A program made the translations under genes and the position numbers. This document shows positions 9,170 through 51,917 of a DNA stretch of 64,000 nucleotides, piece after piece. The notes beneath the pieces are model-generated. The model had not been told where the DNA came from and ran no database searches. It saw only the letters and a program-made list of their open reading frames with translations. Each line of letters opens with the position of its first letter. The first letter of the stretch is position 1. Source of the DNA: an uncultured archaeon (GTDB taxonomy: Archaea; Micrarchaeota; Micrarchaeia; Micrarchaeales; CABMGC01); NCBI GenBank assembly GCA_963787445.1, contig CAWBCT010000005.1:576001-640000 (forward strand), given 5' to 3'.

Positions 9170-9322
9170 ATGAAAGTTTTATTGTGTCATGTTTGTGGAA
9201 AGACGGCCGGAAGTACCTGCAAATTATGTGGGAGACCAGCCTGCGCTGCGCACTATGATGAGAAATTGGGCATCTGCCTAATGTGCAAGACGGGCCGGAC
9301 TTTAGCTACTCTTAAGAAATAG
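9170..9322 (+). CDS. 50-aa zinc-finger protein (not in ORF track)
   Basis: MKVLLCHVCGKTAGSTCKLCGRPACAAHYDEKLGICLMCKTGRTLATLKK: CxxC, CxxC, CxxH, CxxC; starts 8 nt after the primase stop. Confidence 0.75.
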   Translation: MKVLLCHVCGKTAGSTCKLCGRPACAAHYDEKLGICLMCKTGRTLATLKK

Positions 9323-9581
9323 ATTGGAAATCCTGTGCTGAGGTCCCCTGTGGGAAGGCCCTGCCATTTTGTCCTTCCACTGGGAGCTTTATCTCGTTTG
9401 CAAGCCTCGTCAGCTCAGACATGTCGATCTGGCGGTCTATGTAAAGCTCGGTGTAAACAACATTTCCGAGAGTGACCTTCTTGACATTGAAGGTCATCTG
9501 CTGCAGCATCCCACTGCGGGTCACGCGCACCTTCACCGAACCGAATCTTATTGCATTCCTTGCGATGTTTGTCAATTCCAT
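9312..9581 (-). CDS. Hypothetical protein
   Basis: 89-aa ORF with natural composition and ATG start. Confidence 0.65.
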   Translation of the reverse strand: MELTNIARNAIRFGSVKVRVTRSGMLQQMTFNVKKVTLGNVVYTELYIDRQIDMSELTRLANEIKLPVEGQNGRAFPQGTSAQDFQSIS

Positions 9582-9610
9582 TTTATTATCCGTTGATAAT
9601 TAGTATGATA

Positions 9611-9910
9611 TTAGGCAGGCACTACAAACGCTTCCATCCCGGGCTCCTGCTTGTCCCGCTGGGCTCCTGAAATAGCCGCAACTCTGTCCTCTTGCTGCTT
9701 TTCATGCAGGCTCTTCAACTCCGCTACAACTTCGGTCCTGCCGAGTCTCTCCGCAAGCTGCCTCGCCTTCTCAATCTTGTCCTCGCATTCCGTCCTGTCT
9801 ACCTTTTCCAACTGGGCCCTTGCCGTGGTTCTGCTCTTCTCGTCGCCCATGACCAGGGCGTACACTGTGGAGTCGCCTGCCCTCCTGGTTGGTGCCGTAT
9901 GATGTTTCAT
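9611..9910 (-). CDS. Hypothetical protein
   Basis: 99-aa charged helical ORF. Confidence 0.55.
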   Translation of the reverse strand: MKHHTAPTRRAGDSTVYALVMGDEKSRTTARAQLEKVDRTECEDKIEKARQLAERLGRTEVVAELKSLHEKQQEDRVAAISGAQRDKQEPGMEAFVVPA

Positions 9911-10140
9911 TTTCCCACTTGTTTTGCAGTTGCTTACGCTTATCTAAAGCGAAATTCCTGTAACTGACTGAAAGCCAAAGCGATGAAAAATAGGTTTCGC
10001 TGGCTGTGGCTATATGTTGGTTATTAACATTTATAAGGGTATCGCTGCCCCTAGCGTCTTCGGTTCTGGATAGGGACAAAACGCCTGAAAAGCGCCGTAA
10101 AAACGACAATCCATATTAAGCTATTCCTCATTATACTCTC

Positions 10141-34789: not shown

Positions 34790-35467
34790 CTAACCCTTAT
34801 AGAATCTTGACAAAACAGCGTCAGCTAGAATGTCCAAAGTGTCTATCTTGTTGATTTTGCTGTTCTCCAGCATTAAGGATATTTCAGTGCAACCCAGCAC
34901 TACAAGCTCTGCGCCCTCACCGATCTTTCTATTGGCTATCTCATCTACTCGGCGTATCTGCTCCTCTCTCGCAATGCCGGAATTAAATTTGAATATCGAG
35001 TCCGAGAGGGTCTCTTGCTCGTGCTTCGAGAGCTCCAGATATTTTATCCCGCTCACCTTGAAGAGTCCGCTGTTTATGGTTGAAGGAGTTGCAAGTACGG
35101 TTATGGTTCCTACCTTCTTCTCGTTTATGAAAGCCCCAAACTCTTTCTTGAGGTCTACGATCGGGACGTTCACCGATTTCTGCAGTATGTCGTAATAGGA
35201 ATGTATCGTGTTGCAGACCATCGCGATAAAGTCAACCCTATTCCCTTCGAGCTCCTTGAGCCCCTCTATGTAGGGCTGGAGCTCCTTCTTTGAGATGTTG
35301 TGGTAAACCAGCTCGGGAGCGGGGATGCTGTTTATTATGAACTGCGGGAAATCCGCGTTTGACTTCACTCTTCCGCTGTCCTGCAGTTTTTTGATAAGGC
35401 GCAGGTAAAACGTGCCCGTGGCCTCCGGTCCAATCCCTCCAAGCAAGCCAATTTTACGTTGCATCAT
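34790..35467 (-). CDS. Aspartate/glutamate-type (two-Cys) amino-acid racemase
   Basis: IGLLGGIGPEAT, VCNTIH and LGCTEI catalytic Cys motifs. Confidence 0.88.
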   Translation of the reverse strand: MMQRKIGLLGGIGPEATGTFYLRLIKKLQDSGRVKSNADFPQFIINSIPAPELVYHNISKKELQPYIEGLKELEGNRVDFIAMVCNTIHSYYDILQKSVNVPIVDLKKEFGAFINEKKVGTITVLATPSTINSGLFKVSGIKYLELSKHEQETLSDSIFKFNSGIAREEQIRRVDEIANRKIGEGAELVVLGCTEISLMLENSKINKIDTLDILADAVLSRFYKG

Positions 35468-35807
35468 ATCACTCTGCTAAGAAACTCAATCTCCTTTTGA
35501 AAGTTTAGGAATAGGTTTCCGTCCATTTGGCAACAGCGCAAGCTACGCAAGAGCCTAAGGGCTCTCAGCTGCCAACCGCATTCCACTGGAACGGCATCGC
35601 CATCAATTCCTATTAATAAAATCAAATATATAAAACATTTGGTTAGACGAATCGGCCGCACCCTCGTCACCGGTTTCCCTTTTATTCTGCCCTGCGAGCA
35701 CAGAGAACTGGAAAAGCTTAAATATCTCTGAATATATCCTATTTAAGGGGAATGTAAAAGTGCCTGAGGTAGTCCGCCGGTGAGTGGGCAGCTCAGAGGT
35801 AGTTCTC

Positions 35808-37271
35808 ATGAACAAAATTCCGACAAAACCTGGCAAATACGCTGCGAATGGAAGGAGATGGGTAGGGGTAGCCTCATTTGAGGATAGGAAGAAGCCTGCA
35901 GAGGCCTCGATACCCAAGGTGGTTGTGACCCCGAACGGCAATGCGATACTTTTTGAACGCCTTGCGAACGCCGTTAGGACAGGACCTGTCGGAAACGAGG
36001 CAGTGCTTTACGATAACGTAGGGGACCCTGTCCCTGAACAGCTATATTCTACTTTAGGAAACTATTCTGGCAAGCCACTGATAGTCACCAACCATAGGTT
36101 CGACAGCCTGAGGAATTATTCAGGAATGGCAGAGTACCTTGCGCATCCAGAGACCTTTGGAATAGCATCGGGCAGGAAGCCCAGCGGCCCGTGCCACTTC
36201 GGCCACAGGCTGGTGATAGACACCACAAGCTTCTTCCAGAGGAACAAGGTCCAGGTCTTTGTCCCGATAGCGGACAGCGAGGCCAGCCTTGACCGGAAGA
36301 TCAAGAACAAGGCACAATACGAATACTTCATAGCAGACAACCTCCTGGACTGGGGTGCATCGGGTCTCGACCTTGATGCCGCGCACATCTATCTCCAATC
36401 GGAGGAGATGCGCGTGATGAACATAGGCTACGCGATGGCGCGTGGACTGGACCTGCCAGTAACTGTGGACGTTTATGGCAGGGACACTCTTGCTGACGAG
36501 ATGAACTACCTTTTCGCAAGCATCGCCCAGGTGGGAGACATACTGCTTCCGCAGCACCCGGACTTCGGGAAGAAGCACTCCTTCATGCTCTCCGGCGCCG
36601 ATCAGGACGGGAACATGAAGATGACCATGGAACTAGCGTCCAGAGCCATGAGCGGCAAGGTGAGCGAATATGTCAGCACCGCGCCTTCTTCGTTATACAT
36701 AACCTCCATCTCGAATCTTGAGGGTAAGAAGGAGAGCGCAAGCGAGCCCGACACAACGCTCTACCTGGGGCCTTCAAGGAGCCTATACCAGAAGACCGAG
36801 CAGGGCAAGATACTTGAAAGGATAGATAACCTGACGCTCTCTGATAGAATGCTCGACACTGATGAAAAGATTGACGGGTTTACCAAGAAAGACAAGGAAA
36901 AGGTGCTTGACGCCATCCGCAGGAGGCAGACGGTGTTTTCCGAATTTGCAGTAGATGATCTCAGCATAGATGGATTTAAGAGCATCATGAAAGAGGTACT
37001 CACTGCCCATCAAGAGAGGAGGAAAGAGGTCTATGAGTACGCGCTGTCAAGAGCTTTCCGGGACGCCGTTTCGAAACAAGACGCCAGAACAGCAGAAGCA
37101 GTGGTGGCCAATGGCATGCAAGTTCTGCCGGGTTTCAATGCAAGCAGAGTAAAAAGCAGCCCCTCTTTCTGGGAGACCCCAAATGAGGCATACATCCCTG
37201 AAGATAAGCGCAATGTCAGGACCCGATGGTTCAACATGGTCGCACGGATGGCAGGCCAGATAATGCCTTGA
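35808..37271 (+). CDS. Divergent TrpRS paralog A (N- and C-terminal extensions)
   Basis: SGRKPSGPCHFGH (HIGH), PIADSEA, YLQS, AQVGDILLPQH, GADQD; the KMSKS equivalent is KKESAS. Confidence 0.75.
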   Translation: MNKIPTKPGKYAANGRRWVGVASFEDRKKPAEASIPKVVVTPNGNAILFERLANAVRTGPVGNEAVLYDNVGDPVPEQLYSTLGNYSGKPLIVTNHRFDSLRNYSGMAEYLAHPETFGIASGRKPSGPCHFGHRLVIDTTSFFQRNKVQVFVPIADSEASLDRKIKNKAQYEYFIADNLLDWGASGLDLDAAHIYLQSEEMRVMNIGYAMARGLDLPVTVDVYGRDTLADEMNYLFASIAQVGDILLPQHPDFGKKHSFMLSGADQDGNMKMTMELASRAMSGKVSEYVSTAPSSLYITSISNLEGKKESASEPDTTLYLGPSRSLYQKTEQGKILERIDNLTLSDRMLDTDEKIDGFTKKDKEKVLDAIRRRQTVFSEFAVDDLSIDGFKSIMKEVLTAHQERRKEVYEYALSRAFRDAVSKQDARTAEAVVANGMQVLPGFNASRVKSSPSFWETPNEAYIPEDKRNVRTRWFNMVARMAGQIMP

Positions 37272-37283
37272 TGAGGTTTATTC

Positions 37284-38354
37284 ATGGAGTTCAAAACCAA
37301 GACTAACGGCGGCAGGGAAAACAGCGTTAGGCTGACCGATGTATTGAATCAGAATCGCCTGGTGCACACGAGCCCCGGATCGGAGGGCCTTTCTCTAAGG
37401 ATTGAGAAGTGCCAGGCTGAGAAGAGGCCGTTTAGGATGCTATATGGCGAAACCTTCGACGGAAAGGGCAACCCTCTTGACAGCCTGAAGTATTACCTCT
37501 TCGTTAGTGCGCTTTCCAAGGCGATCAAGAGCAGCTATCAGGTTGATGTTGAGTCGACGATTCTGGTCGCAGACCTGGGCGTGTACAGAAACTATCCCGA
37601 GGAGGTCCAGGAGTACAAAAAGTACGCTGCAAGCCGGGAAGCCTTCGCCAGAAAGGTAAAGGAGGTGTACAAGTGCTCCTACGATGTCCGACTGATGAGC
37701 GAGATCTCAGACACGCCGGAGTTCAGACAGAGGTTCGGCAGGGTCAGCGAGATAAGCAACCTCGACGCGGAGCTCATGGGCATGATCCGCAAGAGCGTGC
37801 CAGAGGACAGGCTCGAAGCGGAGGCAAAGCGCGGTTACAAGTATCCATTCGAAGAGATCGCCACAATACTGGGCCTGGACGTGAAGGTCGGGCCGCCGAG
37901 AGAGCAGCTCTATGATGACATAGCGAACTCCATGCTCCCCCACTTCAACGTCAGCCCTCTGCTCCCGATCTATCTCACCCCCACTTATCCGGTCGGCACT
38001 AACTTTGCAGCCTACACGAGCTCTCCTGCAACCAAGCAGTACGGCCTTACGCCCTATAAGGTTGGCAGCAGCGGGATGACCGCCCACAGGATCGTCCTAG
38101 GGGTAACCAGCGTGCAGGAGGCAAAGCGGCTCATAGACGAGACACAGATCTCCTCGTCGGCCACGAAGCCGAACCCGGTTTGCGACATCCTTGTCCTGGC
38201 AGACCTCGCAAGACAGCACCTCGAAGGGGAGTTTGTTCAGAAGGATGTTGCAGACACTCTTGAGCTGTACTATAGAAACAGGATCCGCTCGCACCAGATC
38301 AAAGAGACCGCTTTCACGCATCTGCGCGACCATGTATTAAATTATTTCGGCTGA
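37284..38354 (+). CDS. Class-Ic aaRS-fold (TyrRS/CDPS-like) protein lacking HIGH and KMSKS
   Basis: RPFRMLYG, TILVADL, YPFEEIA and LDVKVGPPREQLYD align with TyrRS/CDPS core strands; ATP-binding motifs are absent. Confidence 0.55.
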   Translation: MEFKTKTNGGRENSVRLTDVLNQNRLVHTSPGSEGLSLRIEKCQAEKRPFRMLYGETFDGKGNPLDSLKYYLFVSALSKAIKSSYQVDVESTILVADLGVYRNYPEEVQEYKKYAASREAFARKVKEVYKCSYDVRLMSEISDTPEFRQRFGRVSEISNLDAELMGMIRKSVPEDRLEAEAKRGYKYPFEEIATILGLDVKVGPPREQLYDDIANSMLPHFNVSPLLPIYLTPTYPVGTNFAAYTSSPATKQYGLTPYKVGSSGMTAHRIVLGVTSVQEAKRLIDETQISSSATKPNPVCDILVLADLARQHLEGEFVQKDVADTLELYYRNRIRSHQIKETAFTHLRDHVLNYFG

Positions 38355-38358
38355 TCCG

Positions 38359-39480
38359 ATGGATGACCAGGAAGGAGCAAATCAAGGGGAACGAGTCGAC
38401 CCATGGGGCAGCGAAGCGTTCACGAACCCGGACCAGGATTTTGCAGATTTCAAGATAGCCAAAATACCCTCCCATGCTCTTGAGTTCTTCAAGGGAAAGA
38501 CCTTCCTGTTCGACCGCGGGTTGATAATCAGGCACAAGGATTTCGAGACCATACTACGGAGGATAGAACTTGGCGAGGATTTCCTGGTGATAAGCGGCTT
38601 TTCAAGCTCCGGGGAGCTCCACTATGGTCATAAGTCAGTCATAGACATTTACAACTTCTTCCGCAAGTTCACAAAGGAGGGGCGATTTGCAATCTGCGAT
38701 CTCGACGCCTATGTCAGCAGGTCGGACGAAAAGATTCCGGACCTTGCCACTGCCAGGAAGTACGCCGTAGACAATGTGGCAGATGCGCTCGCCCTAGGAG
38801 TTCCCGAAGCGGACATACGGGTGCAGAGTAACCAGAGCCTTGACTACCACAACTTCGTGCTTCAAATCTCAAAGAGCCTCTCCTTCAACACCATGAAGGC
38901 GGTGCTCGGACACTCTGACCTGGGCAAATTCACCGCAACATATCTCCAGATAGCTGATATACTGTACCCACAGCTGGAACTGCACGGAGCCCACTCCCTG
39001 GTGCCCGTAGGCATAGACCAAGAACCGATACTAAGCCTGGCCCGGGACGTGGCCAAGAAGCTGAGGAAGAGCCACGGCTTCATCTCACCATCATCCTTGT
39101 ACACCGCACACCTGCCCTCCCTAGTCAATATGAAGGACAAGATGTCAAAGAGCGAGAAAGGCTCGGCACTGCTTCTAAACTCGACAGTGGCGGAGATCGA
39201 CCAGACGATAGCCCACGCGACCACCGGCGGGAGGGACACCCTACAGCAGCAGATCGAGCTAGGAGGCACCCCGGGCAACTGCCCCCTGTATTATCTTCAC
39301 AGGTCAAACAACCCGGATACCGCAGCTGTAGCTGATATCTACAGCAATTGCAAGTCAGGAAAGCTGATGTGCAAGGATGACAAAGCAGCACTGAAGGAGC
39401 TATTCAGGGCCAACGCCGCAGCCCACATCGAAAGAAGGGAGCGATTCATGGAAACCGCAAAGCGGATAGTTGCACGATAA
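38359..39480 (+). CDS. trpS: Archaeal-type tryptophanyl-tRNA synthetase-like protein B
   Basis: VDPWG, SGFSSSGELHYGH, QIADILYPQL, VPVGIDQEP, KMSKS, ATTGGR, ELGGTP, CKSGKLMC. Confidence 0.85.
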   Translation: MDDQEGANQGERVDPWGSEAFTNPDQDFADFKIAKIPSHALEFFKGKTFLFDRGLIIRHKDFETILRRIELGEDFLVISGFSSSGELHYGHKSVIDIYNFFRKFTKEGRFAICDLDAYVSRSDEKIPDLATARKYAVDNVADALALGVPEADIRVQSNQSLDYHNFVLQISKSLSFNTMKAVLGHSDLGKFTATYLQIADILYPQLELHGAHSLVPVGIDQEPILSLARDVAKKLRKSHGFISPSSLYTAHLPSLVNMKDKMSKSEKGSALLLNSTVAEIDQTIAHATTGGRDTLQQQIELGGTPGNCPLYYLHRSNNPDTAAVADIYSNCKSGKLMCKDDKAALKELFRANAAAHIERRERFMETAKRIVAR

Positions 39481-39499
39481 AATATAGAAACGTGATTCT

Positions 39500-40195
39500 T
39501 TGGAGCTGAAAAACCTGCGCGAGAAACTGGACGTGACAAACCAGCGGATAATAACCAAGCTCAAGGACAGGTCACGGTTTCCCCTAAACCCGCCTGTTTA
39601 CATCGCGGACGCAATACCAATAAAAGGCAGGCCCGGAATCTCACTTCTGGAGTTTGCGCTGGAGGGGATAGAGGTCTACCACTCATCTTTGGGCAGGTAT
39701 GATTATCACGACCAGTATCCTGTTTTCTCAAGAAAGCTGCCGGGAAGCCTGGTCGAAAGAGTGACCCCCCCGACTTCACTCCAGGAGGTGTCAATAACCA
39801 TATCGACAGACCTGCTTTCCTACTACCAGCAGATGCTGCCCAGGCTATGCGATAAGAAAGAAGCTGACCCCACCACCTACGGCGAGACCGCCTACGTGGA
39901 TGCCGACACCCTGCAGCTCATACACGAGAGGATAAACAGCACCGGCCGCTATGTGGCTCAGGTCAAGCTTGAGCGGAACGGGAGCCTCAACGTCGACCAC
40001 TCTGATGAAAAGAAGATCAGGGACCTTCTGAGGGATGCGAAGAGGGAGGGTGAAGTGATAGAAGAGGCCAAAAAACTGGCAGCAATGCAGGGACTTGAGC
40101 CTAACCTGATCGGAGAAGTGATCGGCTGGGTCATAGACAAAACCCTCGAGGTGGAGGTCAAGTACATACAGAGGCTTGACGCCCCCAAAGCATAA
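39500..40195 (+). CDS. Chorismate mutase, eukaryote (ARO7/AroQ-beta) type
   Basis: Collinear with yeast ARO7 motifs: NLREKL, RSRF..NPPVY, SLLEFAL, GRYDY, YGETAYVD...LIHERI..GRYVAQVK, VIDKTLEVEVKYIQRL. Confidence 0.85.
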   Translation: MELKNLREKLDVTNQRIITKLKDRSRFPLNPPVYIADAIPIKGRPGISLLEFALEGIEVYHSSLGRYDYHDQYPVFSRKLPGSLVERVTPPTSLQEVSITISTDLLSYYQQMLPRLCDKKEADPTTYGETAYVDADTLQLIHERINSTGRYVAQVKLERNGSLNVDHSDEKKIRDLLRDAKREGEVIEEAKKLAAMQGLEPNLIGEVIGWVIDKTLEVEVKYIQRLDAPKA

Positions 40196-40231
40196 ATATC
40201 ATAGAAAAGCACTAACAATAAACGTGATTCA

Positions 40232-40594
40232 ATGTTCGGACCTGAATTTACCGCAACGCACCATCGAGAGTGGGGTTCGCACTTCAAGGAGAAGGAGCCG
40301 CTCCGCACCAAACTGGCGCTAGTCGGCACCATAACGGCAGGGAACCTGGATTTTGCCGCGATAGTGGCAAGACGGCTCTCTCCGAAAGACAGGAAAGCCT
40401 CGGCATTAGAAGGCGTAGCGCGCCTGGCCTTCCTCAAGGCTGACACAACTCTCATCAGGGGCGCAGCAAGAACATTCGGGCTAACCGACGAAGAGACAAA
40501 GGGTGCAGTGGGCGACGCGGTCAAGGAACAGAGACGCCTTGGCGACACCGTGGTTCCTCAAAGGCTTGAAGCGGAATTCGGCCTAAAAACGTAA
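40232..40594 (+). CDS. Hypothetical helical protein
   Basis: 120-aa ORF with GTGA SD-like motif, co-directional with the operon. Confidence 0.6.
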   Translation: MFGPEFTATHHREWGSHFKEKEPLRTKLALVGTITAGNLDFAAIVARRLSPKDRKASALEGVARLAFLKADTTLIRGAARTFGLTDEETKGAVGDAVKEQRRLGDTVVPQRLEAEFGLKT

Positions 40595-40609
40595 TTATTA
40601 GTTATAGTT

Positions 40610-40921
40610 TCATCCTTCAAACTTCTTCTCATCCTTCCTAGCTCGCTCGTGCGCCTCCTTTAGGCTATGACCCTCGTTCTGGTACCTTATCTCCTGGAGC
40701 TCGTGGTAGGCTATCTTCATGGCGTGCCTCTTCCACCTATCAGATATCCAGATCTGGCCCAGCGGGATTCCGAGCTTGGCGGCGGCTTTGGGGGCGTAGC
40801 GCCTACCTTTGTAAACCACGTTGTAGCAGGCTATGTGCTCTCCGATCAGGCTGTGGGGCACGAAGACCACTTTGTAGCCAAGGCGCCTGAGCCCGCTTGC
40901 TATGGAGGATTTGGTGGGCAT
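40610..40921 (-). CDS. Small zincin-like protein (HExxE...AH)
   Basis: IWISD...IAYHELQE...SLKEAHERA. Confidence 0.6.
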   Translation of the reverse strand: MPTKSSIASGLRRLGYKVVFVPHSLIGEHIACYNVVYKGRRYAPKAAAKLGIPLGQIWISDRWKRHAMKIAYHELQEIRYQNEGHSLKEAHERARKDEKKFEG

Positions 40922-41031
40922 GGAATATAAATATCGTAAATCGGGTTCTAAAAGAATTATGTAACCACAAACTAAACCTATTTTTATCACAATGTTATTA
41001 AATTCTTACGTTCTAGTTTAAACTTGAGTAA

Positions 41032-42003
41032 ATGAAAGAATATCCACTAGATAAATTCCCTAATATAAATATGCGACCGGAAGTGGTTATTAAGCATAAA
41101 GAACATCTTGATGCACTCAAAGACGATATAATTGAGTATAGCAAAGTTGGCCATAGAGATACAATTATGTTTGATTGGCTACTCAGAGTTTTTGAGAATT
41201 TGGGTCTCTCAACAGTGAGAAAGGAATACTTAGATTCATTAGCTATAACAAAGACGCGGTTAGCTTTGTTTGTGGTATTGATTGATGATCCAGTCGACAA
41301 TATCAAAAAGCGTAACTTTAAACTTTTCGAAGAACTTCTCAAGATCCCATTTAATCCCGAGCAAATAGATAAATCTCAATTTAATGTTCATGATGTTGAA
41401 TATCTTGAATTTACAAAAAACTTGTGGACTGAGATCACAAACGAGATTACAAAATATCCTGATCATAAGAGATATAAAGAAGCCTTTGAATTTGATATCA
41501 AACAACTTCTTAATTCTATGAGCTATAGCCGATTTGTAAATACCTACCCTAATGCTATTAACTTGACTGAGAATGACGCTTACGTACATCATAGTATGAT
41601 AGTTTTAATAGAAATGGACATTGATCTGATGTGCTCGCAAGGATTTGATGAGCGTGAATTTGGAGCATTAAGAGAATTAGGTTACATCTCTCAAAAGATG
41701 GCGAAGATAGGTAATATTATAGGAACATATCCTCGAGAACTTATTGAATCAGATATGTCCAGTAGAGCAGTGGTAAAATTTCTGACAGATAACGGCGCAG
41801 ATTTTGGATTCAAATTAAATAAACTAATTAAAAAAGAAATGAGGTATCCCGAGTTCGAAAAAAACCTAACAGACGAATGGCAAAAGGAGTACTTACTAAC
41901 TATCGATTTATCAAAAAGAATAAAATCAATTAATACACAAGATTTCATAAAACAACTAGAATTCGTACAAAAAGCATACCAAATTAAAACTGACTATTGG
42001 TAA
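41032..42003 (+). CDS. Class I terpene-synthase/isoprenoid-synthase fold protein
   Basis: LIDDPVD (DDxxD) and KIGNIIGTYPRE (NSE/DTE-like) motifs; all-helical; AT-rich. Confidence 0.65.
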   Translation: MKEYPLDKFPNINMRPEVVIKHKEHLDALKDDIIEYSKVGHRDTIMFDWLLRVFENLGLSTVRKEYLDSLAITKTRLALFVVLIDDPVDNIKKRNFKLFEELLKIPFNPEQIDKSQFNVHDVEYLEFTKNLWTEITNEITKYPDHKRYKEAFEFDIKQLLNSMSYSRFVNTYPNAINLTENDAYVHHSMIVLIEMDIDLMCSQGFDEREFGALRELGYISQKMAKIGNIIGTYPRELIESDMSSRAVVKFLTDNGADFGFKLNKLIKKEMRYPEFEKNLTDEWQKEYLLTIDLSKRIKSINTQDFIKQLEFVQKAYQIKTDYW

Positions 42004-42022
42004 AATTTGTGCTGCTTAAATC

Positions 42023-42568
42023 TCATAATTGTTCTTCATAAAGAGACGGAAATCGTTCTTTCAGGTTTTTATTGCCATCAATAACTATCTTACAGACATT
42101 ATTACTATTAGCTTGGTATTCTACTTCTATAGCATCAAAATCTCTATCCGTAATGGCAGATATTAAACCCGCAATAATACCGCGTAACAAGTGATCTATA
42201 TTTCTATATTTTGTATTTTCAAATTCTTTTATTAAGAAAGAATCTTCTAAGATTAATGTCCCAGTGGGGATTGTATTAGCATCTTCGTACTTTACATTCC
42301 CATAACCATATAAGTTTATAGTATTACAAATCCAGTTTTTATCTGTTGACTGTGCAAACTCTGCTTTAAGATTTTGTTTGTATTCCAACATAGATTTTTT
42401 TGAAATTAAATAAAGTGTCTTTAATGACCCCAAATCATCATACGCTTTACTTAAATATGCAGTTATACTTTGTGGCGGAAATATCAGAACATCTTGTCCA
42501 TAAAGTGTTACTTTTCCATCTACAAATGTCATTTTTCTTGTTATCATCAACATCTCAAAAAAGTTCAT
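42023..42568 (-). CDS. V4R-domain protein (degenerate Zn motif)
   Basis: GKVTLYGQDVLIFP, LYGYG, HLLRGIIAGLIS, EVEYQANSNNVC. Confidence 0.75.
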   Translation of the reverse strand: MNFFEMLMITRKMTFVDGKVTLYGQDVLIFPPQSITAYLSKAYDDLGSLKTLYLISKKSMLEYKQNLKAEFAQSTDKNWICNTINLYGYGNVKYEDANTIPTGTLILEDSFLIKEFENTKYRNIDHLLRGIIAGLISAITDRDFDAIEVEYQANSNNVCKIVIDGNKNLKERFPSLYEEQL

Positions 42569-43134
42569 TCGATGTCACCAAACCTTTTTGCTGCTAATTC
42601 AGGAAAATTTTCAAATAATTCTTTTTTAGAACCCCAATAGTAAACGCATACGTCATTACCCGAACATATACACTTTGTTTCTATAACATCTATATCCATA
42701 TTGAATGTACCACTTGCAGATCCTGCAATAAGACCTTCAAAGATAAAATCAGAAGGTTCTTTTATCCCTTTATTTTTAAGATAATCATGCATCGGAAGAT
42801 CTTTTATATTCATAAATCCGCGTTTACCATTTTCATCTAAAAGTTGATATTTTACTAACCCCCAACCTCCGAAAGCACAATACTTAACCCATCTATCCAA
42901 AAAATCTTTAGGGGTTAGCATGTATTCCTTACCTAGTGGTCTAGAAAATTCTGCCATACCCTTTTTCATACACCCATACAATTCTCTTGCCTTTCTTGGC
43001 GTATTATTGATATCTATAGACAACATACCCACAAAATTTACTGGCAAAATCACTATCCGTTGTTTATCCATAGTTATTTTGCCAGGTTCTATATTAACTT
43101 CTTTAGCAAGCGAAAATTTTTCGAATATGTTCAT
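42565..43134 (-). CDS. V4R-domain protein
   Basis: GKITMDKQRIVILP, FGGWG, FEGLIAG, ETKCICSGNDVCVY. Confidence 0.85.
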   Translation of the reverse strand: MNIFEKFSLAKEVNIEPGKITMDKQRIVILPVNFVGMLSIDINNTPRKARELYGCMKKGMAEFSRPLGKEYMLTPKDFLDRWVKYCAFGGWGLVKYQLLDENGKRGFMNIKDLPMHDYLKNKGIKEPSDFIFEGLIAGSASGTFNMDIDVIETKCICSGNDVCVYYWGSKKELFENFPELAAKRFGDIE

Positions 43135-43210
43135 TAAATCGCCTTAACATCGTAATACGATATTACTTTATTAGAGCTAATAGTAGTTTTATTGGCTCTT
43201 GTTTACCATA

Positions 43211-43945
43211 TTATTTATAAACTTGTTCGGCAGGCTTTACAGACATACCTATCTTACCAAACTCCAAGTCATGTACATATTGGCTATGGTCTGTATTTCT
43301 CATTTTCAAGATTGATAAAGTTCTGCTTCTCCTTGCACCTATAAGTTGATTGTACATAACAACAAGACCGTCACACATGAACTCGCTAACACCATCTACT
43401 GTGAGGTGCTCCCCCCCATCTACTGAATCTGTTATTATCATATTTGTTGTAGTAAGATCACTTAATTTATTTATTACCAAATAAGTTATACGCTTTTCAG
43501 AATCACCAGTATAAACTGTTTTATTTCTAGACCCGAGATAACTAATTGGTATGGTGAATTGGTCTATATTTACTGAAAAAATCTCCAGACTATCAAAAAC
43601 TAATCTTTTTGCATGAGTAGTATTTACTGCATCCTCTATGATTTTAAAAAGATCAAGTTTAACTACATCCATTGGGATCGACAAAAACGTAATCTTACCT
43701 TGGCTTTCAAGACTATTCAAATCCCATCCAAATCTTTTTCCTTGTTCTTTCAGCATATCTGTATTAGATTCAAGAGATACATATAATCCATTTTCTCCAG
43801 CTAAAGCCCCACTGTAAAGATATTGCAACCCAAAAATGGTTTTACCAGTACCTGGTGCTCCAACCAGCAAGACATTGAAATTTTTTGGTACGCCCCCCTC
43901 TACAAGCTCATCGAAACCGGGAATGCCTGTCTTTACTCTTTCCAC
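43211..43945 (-). CDS. KaiC/RAD55-like ATPase (single domain)
   Basis: RVKTGIPGFDELVEGG, GAPGTGKT, RLVFDS, EFMCDG, LKMR. Confidence 0.92.
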   Translation of the reverse strand: MERVKTGIPGFDELVEGGVPKNFNVLLVGAPGTGKTIFGLQYLYSGALAGENGLYVSLESNTDMLKEQGKRFGWDLNSLESQGKITFLSIPMDVVKLDLFKIIEDAVNTTHAKRLVFDSLEIFSVNIDQFTIPISYLGSRNKTVYTGDSEKRITYLVINKLSDLTTTNMIITDSVDGGEHLTVDGVSEFMCDGLVVMYNQLIGARRSRTLSILKMRNTDHSQYVHDLEFGKIGMSVKPAEQVYK

Positions 43946-44076
43946 GTCAAAACCTCTAGCTAGTATCGGTATGGTATAGCAAACTATTTATGCATAACGC
44001 AGAAAACATAGTCACTTGCTGAAAGCAAAATTGTTATTGAATTATAAACCTTTATTATGATGTATTAATTGAGTTT

Positions 44077-45180
44077 ATGACAACTACAAAATACTCAACA
44101 CTATTTGAAGACCAAGCTTTTGGTATTCCAGGTTACATTTCTAAACAATTCCATGCTCTAGATAACAAAAAGTTCTTTATTAGAAATATATTCATACCAG
44201 AATCCTTTTTTGTAATACTTGAGCAGACCATAGTAGAAAACAAAGGAGACAAAAGAAAAAAGGAATTATACAGGATGGGAAAGCAATTTGGTTACCGATT
44301 TGCACTTCTTAATCGGTTTCCCAAAGGTAATATTAACAAAGTCACAATGCGTTCCGTGTTTGATTTCTTCCAAACAATCTACGCAAAGAAGATGACTACA
44401 TTAAATATAGATTCCCAATTGAAGATGGTTGAACTAGAACTTGATGAATTCATAGTAACTTCCAAAGATGATATGGGTTATATGCCTATTGGAGCCGGCG
44501 CAGGTGCATGGTGTTACTTAAATGGTGATTATAATCTTGATTGTAGCACCCAAAAATTATCGAAGGGTAAGCATGTACTTTTATGTGCTAATAAAAAGAT
44601 TCTTAAAGAACGGGGATTTGAAGTAATCGAATCTAAGCAAATGCCAGAAAGTATTGATTTTAAGAGCTATATGGGCCATAACTTGCCACAAAAAGGTATG
44701 TTCAAATCATCAAGTTTTAGCCAGCTGCTTAAAACTGGAATTGCTTCGTATACACCTGGAATAATAAAATTAGAAAAATCAAATGAAAGGTTAATAGTAC
44801 TTGAGATATCCATACTCTTTGATATAGAAAACACCTTTGATCAGAAGTTAATATCAGACTCTTCATATACGCCATTCTACAACATTGGACTTTCTCTAAA
44901 GGAAAAAGAAAAACCATACGATAGTCTCACCGAACTGCTTAGCGCCTTTGGATTTGGTATTGTACAGGTAACCGAAAAGAAAGATACGGTATCAGTCCTC
45001 TTTCATGGATATCCGTGGTTCTCAACAGAAACCGAGAAAACAAGTTTTGGTCTTATTAAAGGGGCTGTTCTTGGCTTCCTTAATGGTATTACTGAAAGAA
45101 AATATGAACTAAAATCTTTATCCTCAGAAGTTACGAATAACGTATTTGATGTATCCATGGAATTGGAAATCAAGGAGTAA
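44077..45180 (+). CDS. Tandem V4R-like domain protein
   Basis: Two V4R-like halves (RNIFIP...LYRMGKQFG; ERLIVLE...AFGFG...GAVLGFLNG). Confidence 0.6.
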   Translation: MTTTKYSTLFEDQAFGIPGYISKQFHALDNKKFFIRNIFIPESFFVILEQTIVENKGDKRKKELYRMGKQFGYRFALLNRFPKGNINKVTMRSVFDFFQTIYAKKMTTLNIDSQLKMVELELDEFIVTSKDDMGYMPIGAGAGAWCYLNGDYNLDCSTQKLSKGKHVLLCANKKILKERGFEVIESKQMPESIDFKSYMGHNLPQKGMFKSSSFSQLLKTGIASYTPGIIKLEKSNERLIVLEISILFDIENTFDQKLISDSSYTPFYNIGLSLKEKEKPYDSLTELLSAFGFGIVQVTEKKDTVSVLFHGYPWFSTETEKTSFGLIKGAVLGFLNGITERKYELKSLSSEVTNNVFDVSMELEIKE

Positions 45181-46498
45181 TCGATATCATCTCATCTCCT
45201 TCATGCAGGCTACGCACTGCATCTAACTTCCTGCAGCACATGAACCCCGTAATAATATTGGTTATGACCAGCCTTCTTGCCCTTAATCCCTTTATAAGCC
45301 TCATCTCTTCCATTGCCTTGTCAAGGTCAATGCCCGTGAAAACTGGCAGCAATAGCAAAGTCCCATCTGGCATACCGAATTCTCCCGAAATTATGTACTT
45401 GTTTACCGGATTCTCAGTTTCCTCAGTAATGCTGTTCCTTAGGGCGCTTCTGTGCTTGATAAACTCTGAATGGTTTATGTCCTCTAATAAGATGAGCGCA
45501 AAATACTTGATTGGCAGGTTTGCAAGGCTGATCGTAATCCTTCGTACAATGCCCTTGTCTACCAGCCTGTTGTAAGTATATCTCGCGCTGCCTGCCCCAA
45601 AGCGATTCTTTTCGTCTATCTCGGCAAAATCCATGCTCCCGTTGAAGTTAAGGTCCTTCAGGACCGCATGTTCCCTGTTGAGCAGCCTTGGCGACCCATC
45701 GCCGCGCTGAGCCTTGCCCCCTGCCTTACTCTTAAGAACCTCAAAGAACCCGTCTCTTAATGGTATAAAGCCATAGCCCATCGAGAACTGCGTAAGGTAG
45801 AACCTAAGGTTGCAGTCCGGGAAGAGCCTGTCCCTCAGCTCCGACGCCTGGGCTCTCATATCGCCATTTGCATCAAACAGGGCGTATACGAAGAGATCGT
45901 AGTCCCCTTGGGTCAGCAGCGCCAGCTGCACGCGGGGCTCAGCCTCAAGCTCCCTCTTCATGGTCCTGAGGTTGGGCACTTCATCCAGGAACTTGACCAT
46001 TATGACATACTCCACGTAGCCGAGCTTCCCTAGGTCCGGCTCGAGGATGTAGCTTATGCCGTACTTCCTCTCCAGGTTCCTCCTGTGGGCCTCCAGCGTG
46101 GCCGGCTTGAGCCCCATCTTCTTGGCCATCTCTGCCAGCGTTAGCCTGCCATCGGCGCTTAAAGCGGAGATTATGGCGTTCTCGTGCTCCCTTGAGTACT
46201 CTCTATGGCGGTACTCCCTCCGTTCCGTGTCCTTTCTTGGTTTGGCGCTGAACTCCCTTTCTACCAGAGCTCCTCCAAGCTCCGCGTCCCGCCTTATGCC
46301 CGGTATGAACAGGCCCTCGATCGTAATCCTCCCTATGTACCTCGAGATGCCCCTGACCTTCTTCCTCTCCTTGTCCCATTTGCTCGTAGCCTCGTAGACG
46401 TAGCAGTGCTCGTTGATTATCTTTATGCTGAGGTACCTGTCGCTGTTCTTCTTGAGCTCTTCGTAGGTGGTTTGGACTTTTTCTGGAAGCTGTTGCAT
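45170..46498 (-). CDS. Double Lrp/AsnC-type HTH regulator with an extra N-terminal domain
   Basis: LSADGRLTLAEMAKKMG HTH plus LGY...GDYDL RAM-like domain, repeated in the C-half; N-terminal YVYEATSKWDKERKKVR...YIGRI segment. Confidence 0.75.
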   Translation of the reverse strand: MQQLPEKVQTTYEELKKNSDRYLSIKIINEHCYVYEATSKWDKERKKVRGISRYIGRITIEGLFIPGIRRDAELGGALVEREFSAKPRKDTERREYRHREYSREHENAIISALSADGRLTLAEMAKKMGLKPATLEAHRRNLERKYGISYILEPDLGKLGYVEYVIMVKFLDEVPNLRTMKRELEAEPRVQLALLTQGDYDLFVYALFDANGDMRAQASELRDRLFPDCNLRFYLTQFSMGYGFIPLRDGFFEVLKSKAGGKAQRGDGSPRLLNREHAVLKDLNFNGSMDFAEIDEKNRFGAGSARYTYNRLVDKGIVRRITISLANLPIKYFALILLEDINHSEFIKHRSALRNSITEETENPVNKYIISGEFGMPDGTLLLLPVFTGIDLDKAMEEMRLIKGLRARRLVITNIITGFMCCRKLDAVRSLHEGDEMISITP

Positions 46499-46586
46499 AT
46501 AGGTTATAATAAATCATATAATATATAGTGTTTTCTACAGAATTCGAAAAAGTACGAAGATTTATTATTTTGAATCTGAAACAGAG

Positions 46587-46616
46587 TTTTATATAGGTTA
46601 TATAACCTATATAAAA
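46587..46616. promoter_or_regulatory. Perfect 30-bp palindrome (operator candidate)
   Basis: TTTTATATAGGTTATATAACCTATATAAAA is its own reverse complement; extra half-site ATATAGGTTATA at 46497-46508. Confidence 0.7.
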
Positions 46617-46734
46617 ATTATGTAAATGTAACTTCTGATTCATTTAATTCATTAATCTTTAAAGCAATACTCAATTTACATAGTCCGTTAATTTATACCA
46701 CCTCAATACTTGTTAAAGCAGTGAGGATGTAAAC

Positions 46735-47460
46735 ATGATAGAAATAAAAATTGGAAAAGGAACTTCGCAAGATGCAGAACGCTTAGTTGGTAGAGAAGCA
46801 TTTCCAATAAGAGAACGCTCAAGCAACGGCGCTAATGGAAGTCACAGTACCCTGCTAGTTCTGGAAAGGAGAACTGGGGCTCTCGCTGATTCTGCTCGAC
46901 CTTTGGCAGTCCTTCAAAGATCCGACGTACATAAGCTCACAGATACGCAGATGGAAAGGCTCGACAAGCTTTGGTCCTACAACATCTCCCACATCACGCG
47001 TAAACTCGTGTCAAGAGGAGATGCCCCGCAGATCAAGGCAGAACAACTTTATCCACTTGAGGCGATGTTGGGCAAGATAGATCTCGAGACCGCCAGGAGT
47101 TTTGAAGCAGAGTTCAAAAGATTCATGTCCATAATTCTGATCAAACCCGAAAACGTGAAAATTGTAGCACCTTCGAGGCCTGTAGACATGTATTGGCACT
47201 TGTTCGTACTAGACACGCGGGAATATCGTAAGTTCTGTGAGCAGGTGTTCGGAAGGTTCATAGATCATGTGCCGTCCAGTGACGCTAGAAGGCAGCATAC
47301 AAGGGACGCATACGTGAGCACGCTGGATGCATACAATAAACTTTTCGGAGTTCCTGACGGAAGAATATGGCCCAAGCTCAGGGTTGAGGGCGCTAATTGC
47401 GGGACGGGTTCTGGACATTGCAGCGGTGGCCCCGATTGTAATCAATGTAATGCAGGATGA
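46735..47460 (+). CDS. Glycine-rich-domain (GRDP/DUF1399-like) protein with Cys/Gly tail
   Basis: EFKRFM, APSRPVDMYWHLFVLDTREYRKFC, FIDHVP, TLDAYNKLFG, IWP. Confidence 0.75.
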   Translation: MIEIKIGKGTSQDAERLVGREAFPIRERSSNGANGSHSTLLVLERRTGALADSARPLAVLQRSDVHKLTDTQMERLDKLWSYNISHITRKLVSRGDAPQIKAEQLYPLEAMLGKIDLETARSFEAEFKRFMSIILIKPENVKIVAPSRPVDMYWHLFVLDTREYRKFCEQVFGRFIDHVPSSDARRQHTRDAYVSTLDAYNKLFGVPDGRIWPKLRVEGANCGTGSGHCSGGPDCNQCNAG

Positions 47461-47479
47461 TAGCGGTTAATAAGAGCAT

Positions 47480-48103
47480 ATGCCGTATGCACTAATTGGT
47501 AATAAAATGTCGGCAACTCGCGTGTCATTCAGATACTCATGGGTTTATGACCAGGTGTGGAAAAGGTTCTTACCCAAGAACTCGAAGGAAATGAATCAGT
47601 ACCCCACTCCGAATCAAGTGAAGAGTCAAATGCTGGTGAAAGAGAAAGCTTGGCGAATACATGAGAAGGTAATAGTCAATGCCATACCTTCAATAACTGC
47701 TCTTAAATGGCAAGAAAAAGAAATCCGTTGCTACGTTGTGGGATTTTGCAGGCCTTTCTCAGATCCCTTGACCATGATGCCGTACAAGTCTGATAAGATG
47801 TTCGTTGATGTGCTCACCCACGAGCTAATTCATCAGATACAAGTACAGAATTTAGACATGTCAAGAAACTTCAGAAAATGGTTAATTAAAAGATATCCAA
47901 ACGAGTCAACAATAACTATTAATCATGTAGCATTATACGCAATTTACGAAACGCTTTACCTAAAACTCTTCGGTAAGACGAGGTTGAAAGAGAGTTTGTC
48001 GAAGGTAAAGCTGCAAGAGTACTTAAGGGCGCTCGAGATAGTAAATCAAGAAGGATGTAGCGAGATTCTCTCCCGATTCATTAATTATGGGGCAAGTGAG
48101 TAA
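47480..48103 (+). CDS. HExxH putative metallopeptidase
   Basis: PFSDPLT and LTHELIH, with a downstream H. Confidence 0.6.
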   Translation: MPYALIGNKMSATRVSFRYSWVYDQVWKRFLPKNSKEMNQYPTPNQVKSQMLVKEKAWRIHEKVIVNAIPSITALKWQEKEIRCYVVGFCRPFSDPLTMMPYKSDKMFVDVLTHELIHQIQVQNLDMSRNFRKWLIKRYPNESTITINHVALYAIYETLYLKLFGKTRLKESLSKVKLQEYLRALEIVNQEGCSEILSRFINYGASE

Positions 48104-48682
48104 ATGGTTAAGGAGATCTACTACGTAACCTCAAATCCTGGGAAAGCAAGGTCTCTCCAGAATACGCTTTCAGGTTTCGGGATAGCCGTCAAGCAGCTCA
48201 ACCTGGGCCTAGTCGAGCCTCAGAGCCACGATGTTCGTGAGATAGCCATAGAGAAGGCCAAGAACGCGTTCAAAAAGATTGGCAAGCCGTGTGTGGTGAA
48301 TGACGCGGGCTTCTACATGGATGCGCTCAACGGCTTCCCGGGCCCGCTGATAAGGCCCATATTAGATACCATAGGCATAGAGGGCATACTTAAACTTGTT
48401 GAAGGAAAAGGGAGGGCATGCGAGTTCAGGCACTGTTTTGCCTACATGGGAGAGGGGATGCAGGAGCCCGTCTGCTTTGAAGATGATGTGAAGGGCAGTC
48501 TTACAGAGTCGCCGCTCGGGGAGCTGAAGGAGAATGCCTGGTCTAGGCTATTCCTCTTCTTCGTGCCCGAGAAGCTGAACAGGACCCTGGCGCAGATGTC
48601 GATAGAGGAATATCTCAGATGGCACAAGGGCAATGCGGACAGGGCAGAGCTCGAGCTAGCGGCGTACCTTAAGGAGAAATAA
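48104..48682 (+). CDS. Non-canonical purine NTP pyrophosphatase (HAM1/ITPase family)
   Basis: VTSNPGK, EPQ, IAIEKA, DAGFYMDALNGFPGP. Confidence 0.9.
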   Translation: MVKEIYYVTSNPGKARSLQNTLSGFGIAVKQLNLGLVEPQSHDVREIAIEKAKNAFKKIGKPCVVNDAGFYMDALNGFPGPLIRPILDTIGIEGILKLVEGKGRACEFRHCFAYMGEGMQEPVCFEDDVKGSLTESPLGELKENAWSRLFLFFVPEKLNRTLAQMSIEEYLRWHKGNADRAELELAAYLKEK

Positions 48683-51045: not shown

Positions 51046-51127
51046 AATCACACCGGTCAAATCCTTAAGACTCTTATCTATGATAAGAACCATTCGGACT
51101 TTATCTTTTAATATGCTTCTGTATGGG

Positions 51128-51784: not shown

Positions 51785-51917
51785 GGGGTTGTGGCGTAAC
51801 TTGGTAGCGCGGCAGCCTCCAGATGTTTATTGATTTGAGCCTCGGGCTGTGATGATGATCTGGAAAGACTAAATATGAAGTAAGCTGCATGTTCGGGTTC
51901 AAATCCCGGCAACCCCA
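51785..51917 (+). tRNA. tRNA-Trp(CCA) with a 60-nt canonical-position intron (51823-51882)
   Basis: Acceptor GGGGTTG/CAACCCC; anticodon stem GCAGC/GCTGC with CT-CCA-G; T-loop GTTCAAAT; relaxed BHB. Confidence 0.92.

Follow-up and report, generated by a model that had tools for sequence, protein, structure and literature searches.

Why would a small archaeal genome that already encodes housekeeping tryptophanyl- and tyrosyl-tRNA synthetases (TrpRS and TyrRS) carry a further run of synthetase-like genes beside a chorismate mutase and a racemase? The question is raised by a 64,000-nucleotide stretch of an uncultured micrarchaeon (assembly GCA_963787445.1, contig CAWBCT010000005.1, positions 576,001 to 640,000), hereafter the window, in which four co-directional genes, here called WA, MID, WB and CM, are separated by gaps of 12, 4 and 19 nt (coordinates of the open reading frames, ORFs) and stand divergent from a racemase gene. 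We tentatively read the locus as the Micrarchaeota-type member of the TrpRS-A-like/ORF1/TrpRS-A system, in which a heteromeric auxiliary class-Ic synthetase would charge tRNA-Trp under tryptophan scarcity, with salvage enzymes encoded alongside.

The divergent gene (34790–35467, minus strand) encodes an Asp/Glu-type amino-acid racemase of 225 aa assigned to PF01177 and TIGR00035, and is separated from WA by an intergenic region of 316 nt. A sigma-70 promoter and terminator scan, whose bacterial model does not apply to an archaeon, gave nothing of use. The plus strand carries WA (35784–37271; 495 aa), a divergent archaeal-type TrpRS paralogue recognized by PF00579 and its AlphaFold2 (AF2) fold; MID (37284–38354; 356 aa), a TyrRS-derived protein recognized by AF2/Foldseek and hhalign; WB (38359–39480; 373 aa), an accessory archaeal-type TrpRS paralogue of the TrpRS-A type (PF00579); and CM (39500–40195; 231 aa), a eukaryote-type AroQ/ARO7-like chorismate mutase (TIGR01802, PF01817). 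A preliminary description of the locus had listed four co-directional genes 4–19 nt apart, divergent from a two-Cys racemase and including three class-Ic synthetase paralogues; the ORFs and family calls agree with it.

The cluster is accessory, since housekeeping trpS and tyrS genes, whose existence the same description had proposed to check, lie elsewhere on the same contig. The window genome, 82% complete at 1.05 Mb in 19 contigs, has its four class-Ic genes on a single contig, C5, with two of them far from the cluster; outside the window are encoded an ordinary TyrRS of 352 aa with HIGH and KMSKS motifs and an ordinary TrpRS of 371 aa with KMSAS, the latter adjoining a Kae1-like gene. Orthologues of this TyrRS were found in 31 of 31 genomes sampled from the order and those of the TrpRS in 29 of 31, with identities up to 70% (the sample includes one unpublished genome, G038). 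WB is only 26% identical to the housekeeping TrpRS, and the existence of this separate, widely retained enzyme rules out WB as the sole TrpRS. MID was found in 2 of 41 relatives, the window genome counted, the other carrier being G004 from the same genus. In each of five further carrier genomes, two class-Ic genes lie beyond the cluster region; one of those in G045 encodes a bacterial-type TrpRS with an editing domain, just downstream of the pair.

The gene order in G004 is SufBDCS, racemase, WA, MID, WB, CM and a small ORF, and a SufD/SufC/SufS operon likewise lies upstream of the cluster in the window. The arrangement is not due to chance, because the gene order recurs in G004 and in the Micrarchaeota contigs L009–L011. 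The small ORF (40232–40594, plus strand, 120 aa) has no Pfam or NCBIfam match; a 111-aa homologue with 52% identity follows CM in G004, and none was found in the remaining loci of the 52 compared below. Low dN/dS between the window genome and G004 (0.065 for the racemase and 0.088 for CM, given only where dS could be estimated) indicates that the cluster genes are kept by selection; for WA and MID dS is saturated, with dN of 0.16–0.27. Decay into pseudogenes is ruled out by the open frames together with the low dN/dS. Six DNA-type public run sets, from three studies, were listed as containing the sequence, with no RNA set among them. In G004 (locus L008, contig G004:C4) SufS, MID and WB are each split in two ORFs (4024–5103, 7801–8864 and 8857–9992), and these frameshifts look like assembly or sequencing errors rather than decay, because the housekeeping SufS gene is split too.

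The core of this system has been published and has stood unexplained since 2017, contrary to the preliminary description, which knew of no published archaeal system so arranged. Mukai et al. (Life 2017; PMC5370408) report TrpRS-A-like, ORF1 and TrpRS-A genes in bacteria of the candidate phyla radiation (CPR) and in DPANN archaea. According to the available portions of that paper, bacterial operons contain tRNA-Trp (A73), a canonical TrpRS is present besides, ORF1 co-evolves with its partner and the bacterial proteins are free of tryptophan; a possible heterodimer and a role in tryptophan metabolism are proposed, a spare inhibitor-resistant TrpRS is also listed as a possibility, and the functions are called unclear. 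By description rather than by sequence, WA, MID and WB fit TrpRS-A-like, ORF1 and TrpRS-A: common to both are an archaeal-type TrpRS paralogue preceded by a class-I-like ORF1, a divergent TrpRS-A-like gene and a canonical TrpRS besides. The window thus has the extra TrpRS paralogue, an ORF1 4 nt upstream of WB and the divergent WA, whereas the dedicated tRNA-Trp in or beside the operon was not found within the window cluster. It further differs in that WA and WB have one ORF1 between them where the published system has one for each synthetase, in that WB and MID appear to fall in a Micrarchaeota clade apart from both main TrpRS-A clades, and in the attached chorismate mutase and racemase. The terms chorismate, racemase, aminotransferase, Micrarchaeota and Woesearchaeota have no mention in the available text of the paper, figures apart. 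The names TrpRS-A, TrpRS-A-like, TrpRS-A1 and TrpRS-A2 occur in this paper only, and no functional follow-up was found, in the literature searched, which leaves most subscription journals outside. To this published core the window adds a distinct Micrarchaeota variant in which one ORF1 stands between a pair of TrpRS-like genes, the clade appears separate, no tRNA adjoins, and CM and a racemase are attached; the present analysis contributes the derivation of ORF1 from TyrRS and its complete fold, the gene fusions, a broader distribution, the pattern of discriminator bases and the set of accessory enzymes.

Distribution and partnership of the MID and TrpRS-like genes

A scan of one genome per species yielded 50 loci with a relative of MID, which with the window and G004 make 52. 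The loci are labelled Micrarchaeota, Woesearchaeota, Nanoarchaeota, Aenigmatarchaeota, Woesebacteria, Shapirobacteria, Microgenomates, Saccharibacteria and Paceibacterota; several TPA bins labelled Gammaproteobacteria/Pseudomonadales have CPR-looking neighbour genes. A TrpRS-like gene directly follows the MID-type gene in 45 of the 52 loci and is fused to it in frame in three more (L010, 737 aa; L011, 701 aa; L053, 810 aa), while one gene, an M28-type peptidase, intervenes in three and the contig ends in one. By a start-codon heuristic, 21 of 46 pairs show a 4-nt ATGA-style overlap. The parts universal across loci are ORF1 and the TrpRS-like gene, often with a tRNA.

Of the 52 loci, 17 have a WA-type gene, which in 11 cases precedes a more distant MID paralogue of its own, in the order WA–ORF1'–ORF1–W, where W is the TrpRS-A-type gene; in the window, G004, L009, L010 and L011 WA is directly followed by a single MID. 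Two DPANN contigs, L015 and L029, carry two ORF1/TrpRS-like pairs each; the trimmed tree alignment shows no difference between the ORF1 copies of L029, whose TrpRS-like copies are also close to each other.

The class-Ic proteins, 101 in all and without the rows of the unpublished genome, were placed in a quick maximum-likelihood tree. WA proteins form one clade (100, starred), and 45 W proteins form another (99, starred), which splits into 22 and 23. WB groups with the proteins of L009, L010 and L012 in a separate clade (98, starred) outside the 45-row clade and joins WA at an unstarred 87. The ORF1 tree mirrors that of the TrpRS-like proteins, with the partners of WA (100, starred), a Micrarchaeota clade (96, starred) and groups of 22 and 24. 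Judged by these sequence trees, the Micrarchaeota form of the system appears to be a separate clade.

Fold and motifs of MID, WA and WB

MID has no match in Pfam or NCBIfam, PF00579 included. Its AF2 model, built from a 26-member alignment, has a mean pLDDT of 92.4 and a pTM of 0.91, and includes a C-terminal helical domain. Foldseek placed full-length archaeal TyrRS structures on top (7fg6, E 6.4e-11; 2cyb, E 9.9e-11, TM 0.69/0.77), with 7fg6, 2cyb and 2cya spanning E 6e-11 to 1e-9 and TMt 0.64–0.77. In profile–profile comparison with hhalign, the MID family matched an alignment of the housekeeping TyrRS and 23 orthologues with 95.6% probability (E 1.1e-8, 252 columns), as against 3.3%, 12% and 0.15% for the housekeeping TrpRS, W and WA alignments, respectively. 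This comparison supports descent of MID from TyrRS rather than from TrpRS. The complete TyrRS fold of the model differs from the ORF1 model in the available text of PMC5370408, which has no Rossmann fold.

The HIGH motif is absent from MID, and its site is occupied by Y-G-E-T-x-D/D-S-L-K-Y-Y; the first Rossmann strand (residues 50–56) runs into Y-G-E-T-F-D at this position. In place of KMSKS stands K-V-G-S-S, with Y-K-V-G-S-S aligned to M-K-M-S-K-S and the second Lys lost. Elsewhere hhalign pairs I-L-V-A-D-L-G-V-Y-R-N of MID with I-L-L-A-D-W-H-T-M-A-N of TyrRS, Y-K-Y-P-F-E-E-I-A-T with Y-L-Y-P-L-M-Q-V-V-D, and K-V-G-P-P-R-E with A-G-M-D-Q-R-K. We take the Asp of L-A-D and the Tyr of Y-P in TyrRS to hold the α-amino group of the substrate, and the last Asp of the Y-P block to read the phenol hydroxyl; in MID the first two are retained as the invariant D97 and Y187, and Thr replaces the Asp of TyrRS at the third. 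The family alignment (n = 26) contains 32 invariant columns, all within residues 54–269 and none in the C-terminal domain; among them are Y-G-E-T-x-D, D-S-L-K-Y-Y, D97, N103, K-V-G-P-P-R-E, Y210-D211 and T-P-Y-K-x-G-S. On its alignments and predicted structure, MID is a TyrRS-derived protein that has lost the ATP motifs and whose pocket is reshaped yet strictly conserved.

In a collection of 5.8 billion sequences the family has 92 relatives (clusters at 90% identity, E ≤ 1e-3), all unnamed or 'hypothetical' and without a Pfam domain; Micrarchaeota, Dojkabacteria and Patescibacteria are among the named sources. When 1.84 billion representatives were searched with the profile, 170 matched at E ≤ 1e-3, of which 112 reached E ≤ 1e-10 and 76 reached E ≤ 1e-30, so few among so many that the family must be called rare. 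The weak tail of this search consists not of TyrRS but of a more distant ORF1-like family of about 320–380 aa (P0181, P0189, P0193, P0205, P0208, P0215, P0220 and P0234), which has V-A-D...N and K-x-G-P-x-R-E-x-x-Y-D in common with ORF1 and is without Y-G-E-T-x-D. One member, P0234, matches the cyclodipeptide synthase (CDPS) model TIGR04539 weakly, at 30 bits against a cut-off of 45.

The preliminary description had called the middle gene TyrRS/CDPS-like. The TyrRS half of this label stood, given the full-length fold, and the CDPS half did not. MID gave no match to PF16715 or TIGR04539 at E ≤ 0.01, and there is no CDPS among the 50 fold matches listed by Foldseek. Against PDB sequences, the family profile (A1) gave AlbC at E 0.23 and M. 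jannaschii TyrRS at E 0.1, neither significant; the top rows of that search were concatenated-RecA constructs, taken to be an artefact of six repeats of a 2.8-bit match. CDPSs of the AlbC type resemble MID in being class-Ic-derived, in having lost HIGH and KMSKS and in keeping the amino-acid pocket; unlike MID they are single-domain proteins of about 220–300 aa (a 220-position profile; AlbC chain, 247 aa) with no C-terminal helical domain. A CDPS identity is rejected for a 356-aa protein with a full-length TyrRS fold, a helical C-terminal domain and no PF16715 match. The protein atlas returned the unnamed clusters of the family itself at 0.95–0.97, and, at 0.94 with a low recognition value, a cluster of whose members 53% have PF05141; the resulting DIT1/PvcA label was set aside, as Pfam gave no match and Foldseek pointed to TyrRS, and is kept as a bare lead.

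WB matches PF00579 over the entire profile (97.2 bits), and WA over residues 125–337 only, corresponding to the N-terminal two thirds of the profile (61.7 bits). Both fall below the TrpRS equivalog cut-offs: WB scores 250.6 against 451 with NF008925 and 166.8 against 176.75 with TIGR00233, and WA 135.6 and 93.5 against the same thresholds. The motifs are HFGH at residue 138, GADQ at 271 and K-E-S-A-S at 316 in WA, and HYGH at 88, GIDQ at 218 and KMSKS at 261 in WB. Family-wide, LHxGH and KMSxS are conserved in W, and HFGH and GxKxSxS in WA; because these class-I ATP motifs are conserved across their families, both WA and WB look capable of adenylate formation.

About 110 residues extend WA at its N terminus, a β-hairpin is inserted at 331–349, and the conserved start is probably the ATG at 35808. 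The AF2 model of WA (pLDDT 84.6) matches the TrpRS folds of A. pernix and P. horikoshii best, and eukaryotic TrpRS as well. The closest solved relatives of WB are the TrpRS of A. pernix (3e-45) and then that of P. horikoshii (3.9e-32), and WB has a C-x22-C-x6-C-x2-D pattern where the A. pernix enzyme has four Cys. Tyr77 and Gln111 of P. horikoshii TrpRS are named as setting tryptophan specificity in the available part of PMC2831299. Their equivalents are Ile and Ala in WB, and Leu and Ala in A. pernix TrpRS. The Glu/Asp and Gln that bind the α-amino group are retained in the TrpRS-like proteins.

tRNA-Trp, tryptophan content and associated enzymes

In 23 of the 26 CPR-type loci, ARAGORN found a tRNA-Trp(CCA) gene immediately upstream of ORF1 and in the same orientation; the remaining three loci start at or inside ORF1. 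Among the 26 DPANN-type loci, five (L013, L016, L020, L022 and L036) have the gene, likewise immediately upstream but on the opposite strand, so that it adjoins the pair in 28 of the 52 loci. The linked tRNAs look like ordinary elongators with anticodon CCA. Those of CPR have G1-C72 and A73 in 23 of 23 cases, and those of DPANN have G73 in 5 of 5. When set against the domain norm for the tRNA-Trp discriminator base, taken from the introduction of PMC5370408 as far as available, the linked tRNA is therefore opposite to the norm of its host domain. The available text of that paper gives tRNA-Trp (A73) for archaea, and the five DPANN loci here have G73 beside ORF1. A second tRNA-Trp was found by BLAST elsewhere in two of five DPANN carriers searched (G060 and G056; L113:1495-1565 and L114:2603-2676), both with A73. 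Position 33 of tRNA is nearly universally U; in three operon tRNAs of Shapirobacteria/Microgenomates type (L033, L034 and L039) the anticodon loop reads C-C-[CCA]-A-A, hence C33.

The window has an intron-containing tRNA-Trp (CCA) gene at 51785–51917 on the plus strand (Rfam RF00005, 50 bits), with G1-C72, A73 and an intron of about 60 nt bearing a GUGAUGA (C-box-like) motif. It was missed by ARAGORN with and without the intron mode, and the Rfam tRNA model alone found it. Lying outside the operon, it is a possible substrate of the cluster synthetases.

Tryptophan is absent from 25 of 26 ORF1 and 21 of 23 TrpRS-A proteins of CPR-type loci; among the other ORFs there that reach 150 aa, 39 of 164 lack it. 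The mean tryptophan content for DPANN-type loci is 0.22% in ORF1 (0.39% in its paralogue) against 1.01% in neighbours, 0.62% in W and 0.97% in WA. In the window MID has no tryptophan residue, WB one and WA four.

CM scores 88.4 bits with TIGR01802, below the cut-off of 170.9, and 28.1 with PF01817, against a cut-off of 27; it matches plant and yeast chorismate mutase structures at 1.7e-17 to 1.3e-14. We take the catalytic residues of the yeast enzyme to be R16, R157, K168, E198, T242 and E246, with the positions mapped on the 1csm and 4ppu alignments. Ten homologues all have the equivalents of R16, R157 and K168, and at least 80% of them have those of E198, T242 and E246; the alignment at yeast N194 is ambiguous, with Asp as a possible counterpart. 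CM thus looks catalytically intact by its residues, with homology to the eukaryote-type AroQ enzymes (yeast ARO7, plant CM1; 1csm, 4ppu) over the whole length and the catalytic Arg/Arg/Lys/Glu/Thr/Glu kept. It is unlike ARO7 and CM1 in lying below the TIGR01802 cut-off and in its host genomes: chorismate synthase was found neither in the window genome nor in five of five other carrier genomes searched, and the 82%-complete window genome also gave no prephenate dehydratase or prephenate dehydrogenase. With no shikimate pathway found in the window genome, CM is an orphan there. The racemase scores 73.5 bits with PF01177 and 108 bits with TIGR00035, above the cut-off of 93.1, and 8 of 8 homologues in related loci retain both of its Cys motifs, CNTxH and LGCTE, unchanged.

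Enzymes of this kind recur beside the pair, in counts over the 52 loci that are lower bounds, many contigs being short. CM homologues occur in at least 10 loci, racemase homologues in at least 8, a HisC-like class-I/II aminotransferase in at least 7 (259.6 bits against a cut-off of 276.55), an OSBS-family enzyme of the enolase superfamily in at least 4 (TIGR01928, 307 bits against 200.65), an M28-type peptidase in at least 4 and a weakly VanX-like protein in at least 3. The TIGR01928 family presumably includes N-succinyl-amino-acid racemases (NSAR), and racemase/epimerase-family genes are thus near 12 of the 52 loci (8 racemase and 4 OSBS/NSAR, overlaps counted). Three findings here support parts of the preliminary interpretation: the neighbourhood is conserved across DPANN and CPR genomes, tRNA is linked to the pair, in 28 loci as a tRNA-Trp gene, and aromatic and racemising enzymes recur beside the cluster.

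CM and racemase homologues with 39% and 54% identity are also adjacent in G017, from another genus of the same family in which MID was not found (L122, G017:C17; 8059–8814 and about 8968–9630), next to unrelated genes of redox function (MsrA, thioredoxin-like and DsbD-like). Since they are paired there without MID, CM and the racemase appear to be a module of their own that is sometimes joined to the synthetase genes. Downstream of the pair, CPR loci encode a bacterial-type TrpRS that carries one or two fused YbaK-type editing domains (PF04073) in 4 of 4 proteins scanned (L033:7438-8943, L035:10320-12332, L045:9945-11921 and L038:12071-14461), two of them with a C-terminal tRNA_bind domain; such a fusion is an unusual architecture for TrpRS.

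Candidate functions and genomic surroundings

Class-Ic synthetases are textbook homodimers. A heteromeric class-Ic enzyme is the best fit to the cluster because of the adjacency of the genes, the three fusions, the mirrored trees, and ATP motifs that are kept in the partner and lost in MID. We hypothesize that MID takes the place of the second subunit in a normally homodimeric enzyme, and that the WB/WA–MID heteromer aminoacylates a tRNA-Trp-type tRNA, most likely with tryptophan, as a second charging system that would still work when tryptophan is scarce. The linked tRNA-Trp genes imply that the product is an aminoacyl-tRNA, and the tryptophan-free composition implies that the system must be makeable when tryptophan is lacking; the tryptophan-free CPR copies seem a better fit to a role under tryptophan scarcity than to antibiotic-like biosynthesis. 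CM and the racemase would be recurrent add-ons, like the HisC-like aminotransferase, the OSBS/NSAR enzyme and the M28 peptidase in other lineages, which may convert scavenged precursors, D-forms or peptides to usable aromatic amino acids in an auxotrophic symbiont. That their link to the synthetase genes reflects salvage or conversion of host-derived aromatic compounds is a guess. A structural parallel is the double-length, pseudo-dimeric TyrRS of Leishmania and trypanosomes (Larson et al. 2011, as cited in the available part of PMC9437257), whose structure 3p0j ranks 44th among the Foldseek matches of MID. It too combines a dead class-Ic module with an active one, and the three ORF1–TrpRS fusions form the same kind of two-module chain. 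Both of its modules are TyrRS, however, whereas in the MID system a dead TyrRS-derived module comes first and a live TrpRS-derived one second, mostly as separate genes.

Several points weigh against this proposal. ARAGORN found no tRNA-Trp beside the cluster in the window, G004 or L009–L012, and the only tRNA-Trp found in the 82%-complete window genome lies 11 kb downstream. WA is not poor in tryptophan, given its family mean and the four residues in the window protein. The CM–racemase pair exists without synthetase genes in G017, and a chorismate mutase has no obvious sense for tryptophan supply. The P. horikoshii-type specificity residues are lacking from WB and WA (Ile or Ala for Tyr77, Ala for Gln111), although this weighs little and does not decide the substrate, since A. 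pernix TrpRS, a genuine one, also departs from them with Leu and Ala. The strongest conservation of MID is at its former active site, where all 32 invariant columns fall; a purely structural MID is disfavoured, because a structural subunit would not need an invariant pocket. The discriminator switched in 28 of 28 linked tRNAs disfavours plain redundancy and hints at an orthogonal pair with a distinct product.

The conserved pocket leads to a different proposal, a sharper version of that in the preliminary description, in which the TrpRS-like partner loads a dedicated tRNA and MID, deprived of ATP chemistry like the CDPSs, modifies the amino acid on it or transfers it to an acceptor, with CM, racemase and aminotransferase supplying or tailoring the substrate. 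We regard this as unlikely, even though MID keeps D97 (VAD) and Y187 (Y-P), taken here as positions for the α-amino group, but has neither HIGH nor the second Lys of KMSKS, and the invariant columns lie wholly in the catalytic-domain region. The 'wrong' discriminator of the linked tRNA-Trp, with a second A73 tRNA-Trp in two of five DPANN genomes, and the recurrence of biosynthetic-type enzymes beside the pair also favour it, as do the CDPS echoes of AlbC and P0234. These echoes are all below significance, however, PF16715 and the listed fold matches bring no CDPS, the tryptophan-free CPR copies suit a starvation function, and no acceptor-making, export or tailoring genes are conserved across the 52 loci; nothing was found that points to the peptide or diketopiperazine product suggested in the preliminary description. 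The fuller form of this proposal has ORF1/MID as a new TyrRS-born enzyme acting on a partner-made aminoacyl-tRNA, with a private, discriminator-switched tRNA-Trp (A73 in bacteria, G73 in archaea) and, in Micrarchaeota, a coupling to the orphan CM and the racemase on host-derived aromatic precursors; it is doubtful to the same degree. If true, it would mean a tRNA-dependent system of amino-acid transformation or transfer common to CPR and DPANN symbionts.

The switched discriminator and the replaced specificity residues would also suit an orthogonal pair, in which WB, WA or both charge a D- or modified aromatic amino acid onto tRNA-Trp for ambiguous or conditional decoding of UGG. Racemase/epimerase-family genes near 12 of the 52 loci agree with this, and so do the YbaK-type domains on the adjoining CPR TrpRS, as if mischarged tRNA-Trp were troublesome. 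It is nevertheless quite unlikely: the bona fide A. pernix TrpRS has the same replacements, the Glu/Asp and Gln that bind the α-amino group are kept, the tRNAs look like ordinary CCA elongators, and racemases occur in a minority of loci only. A spare, inhibitor-insensitive TrpRS that gives self- or community resistance to an indolmycin- or chuangxinmycin-like compound, with MID stabilising its partner, appears very unlikely. Extra TrpRS copies serve in this way in Streptomyces according to the available part of PMC9437257, the possibility is listed in that of PMC5370408, and the patchy, accessory distribution (2 of 41 relatives) is in line with it. Yet it leaves unexplained the obligatory TyrRS-derived partner, the dedicated tRNA, the two TrpRS-like genes and the tryptophan-free composition. 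Known auxiliary enzymes, such as D. radiodurans TrpRS II and indolmycin-resistant TrpRS (PMC9437257, available part), likewise are second TrpRS copies beside a housekeeping one and serve special conditions; unlike the cluster proteins, they are homodimers acting alone, with neither an obligatory TyrRS-like partner nor a dedicated tRNA.

A live TrpRS-type protein with a TyrRS-derived partner would be either a new way of building a synthetase or a new tRNA-dependent enzyme. The pairing would have spread by transfer between two great radiations of ultra-small symbionts, often with its own tRNA-Trp. From the natural fusions a complex is expected, from the linked tRNAs an orthogonality that acts through position 73, and from the tryptophan-free composition induction under tryptophan starvation. 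Natural orthogonal TrpRS–tRNA pairs would be of practical interest for genetic-code expansion, and an orphan chorismate mutase in genomes without a detected shikimate pathway bears on the use of host metabolites by symbionts.

Two housekeeping genes between the low-G+C island described below and the tRNA-Trp gene, a Ham1-family NTP pyrophosphatase (48104–48682, plus strand) and an ordinary archaeal-type ProRS (49600–51093, minus strand), have no evident link to the cluster. The preliminary description had placed the cluster at the start of an accessory region, which agrees with the base composition: G+C is 0.51–0.54 across the cluster, the genome's own value, and 0.33–0.42 at 40–46 kb. The low-G+C island (40600–47500 of the window) encodes V4R-like and KaiC-like proteins, a 442-aa winged helix-turn-helix (wHTH) protein and several family-less ORFs, and at its position G004 has other genes. 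Within the island, two tandem V4R-domain-like genes (42023–43134) and the gene for the KaiC-like ATPase (43211–43945) lie on the minus strand.

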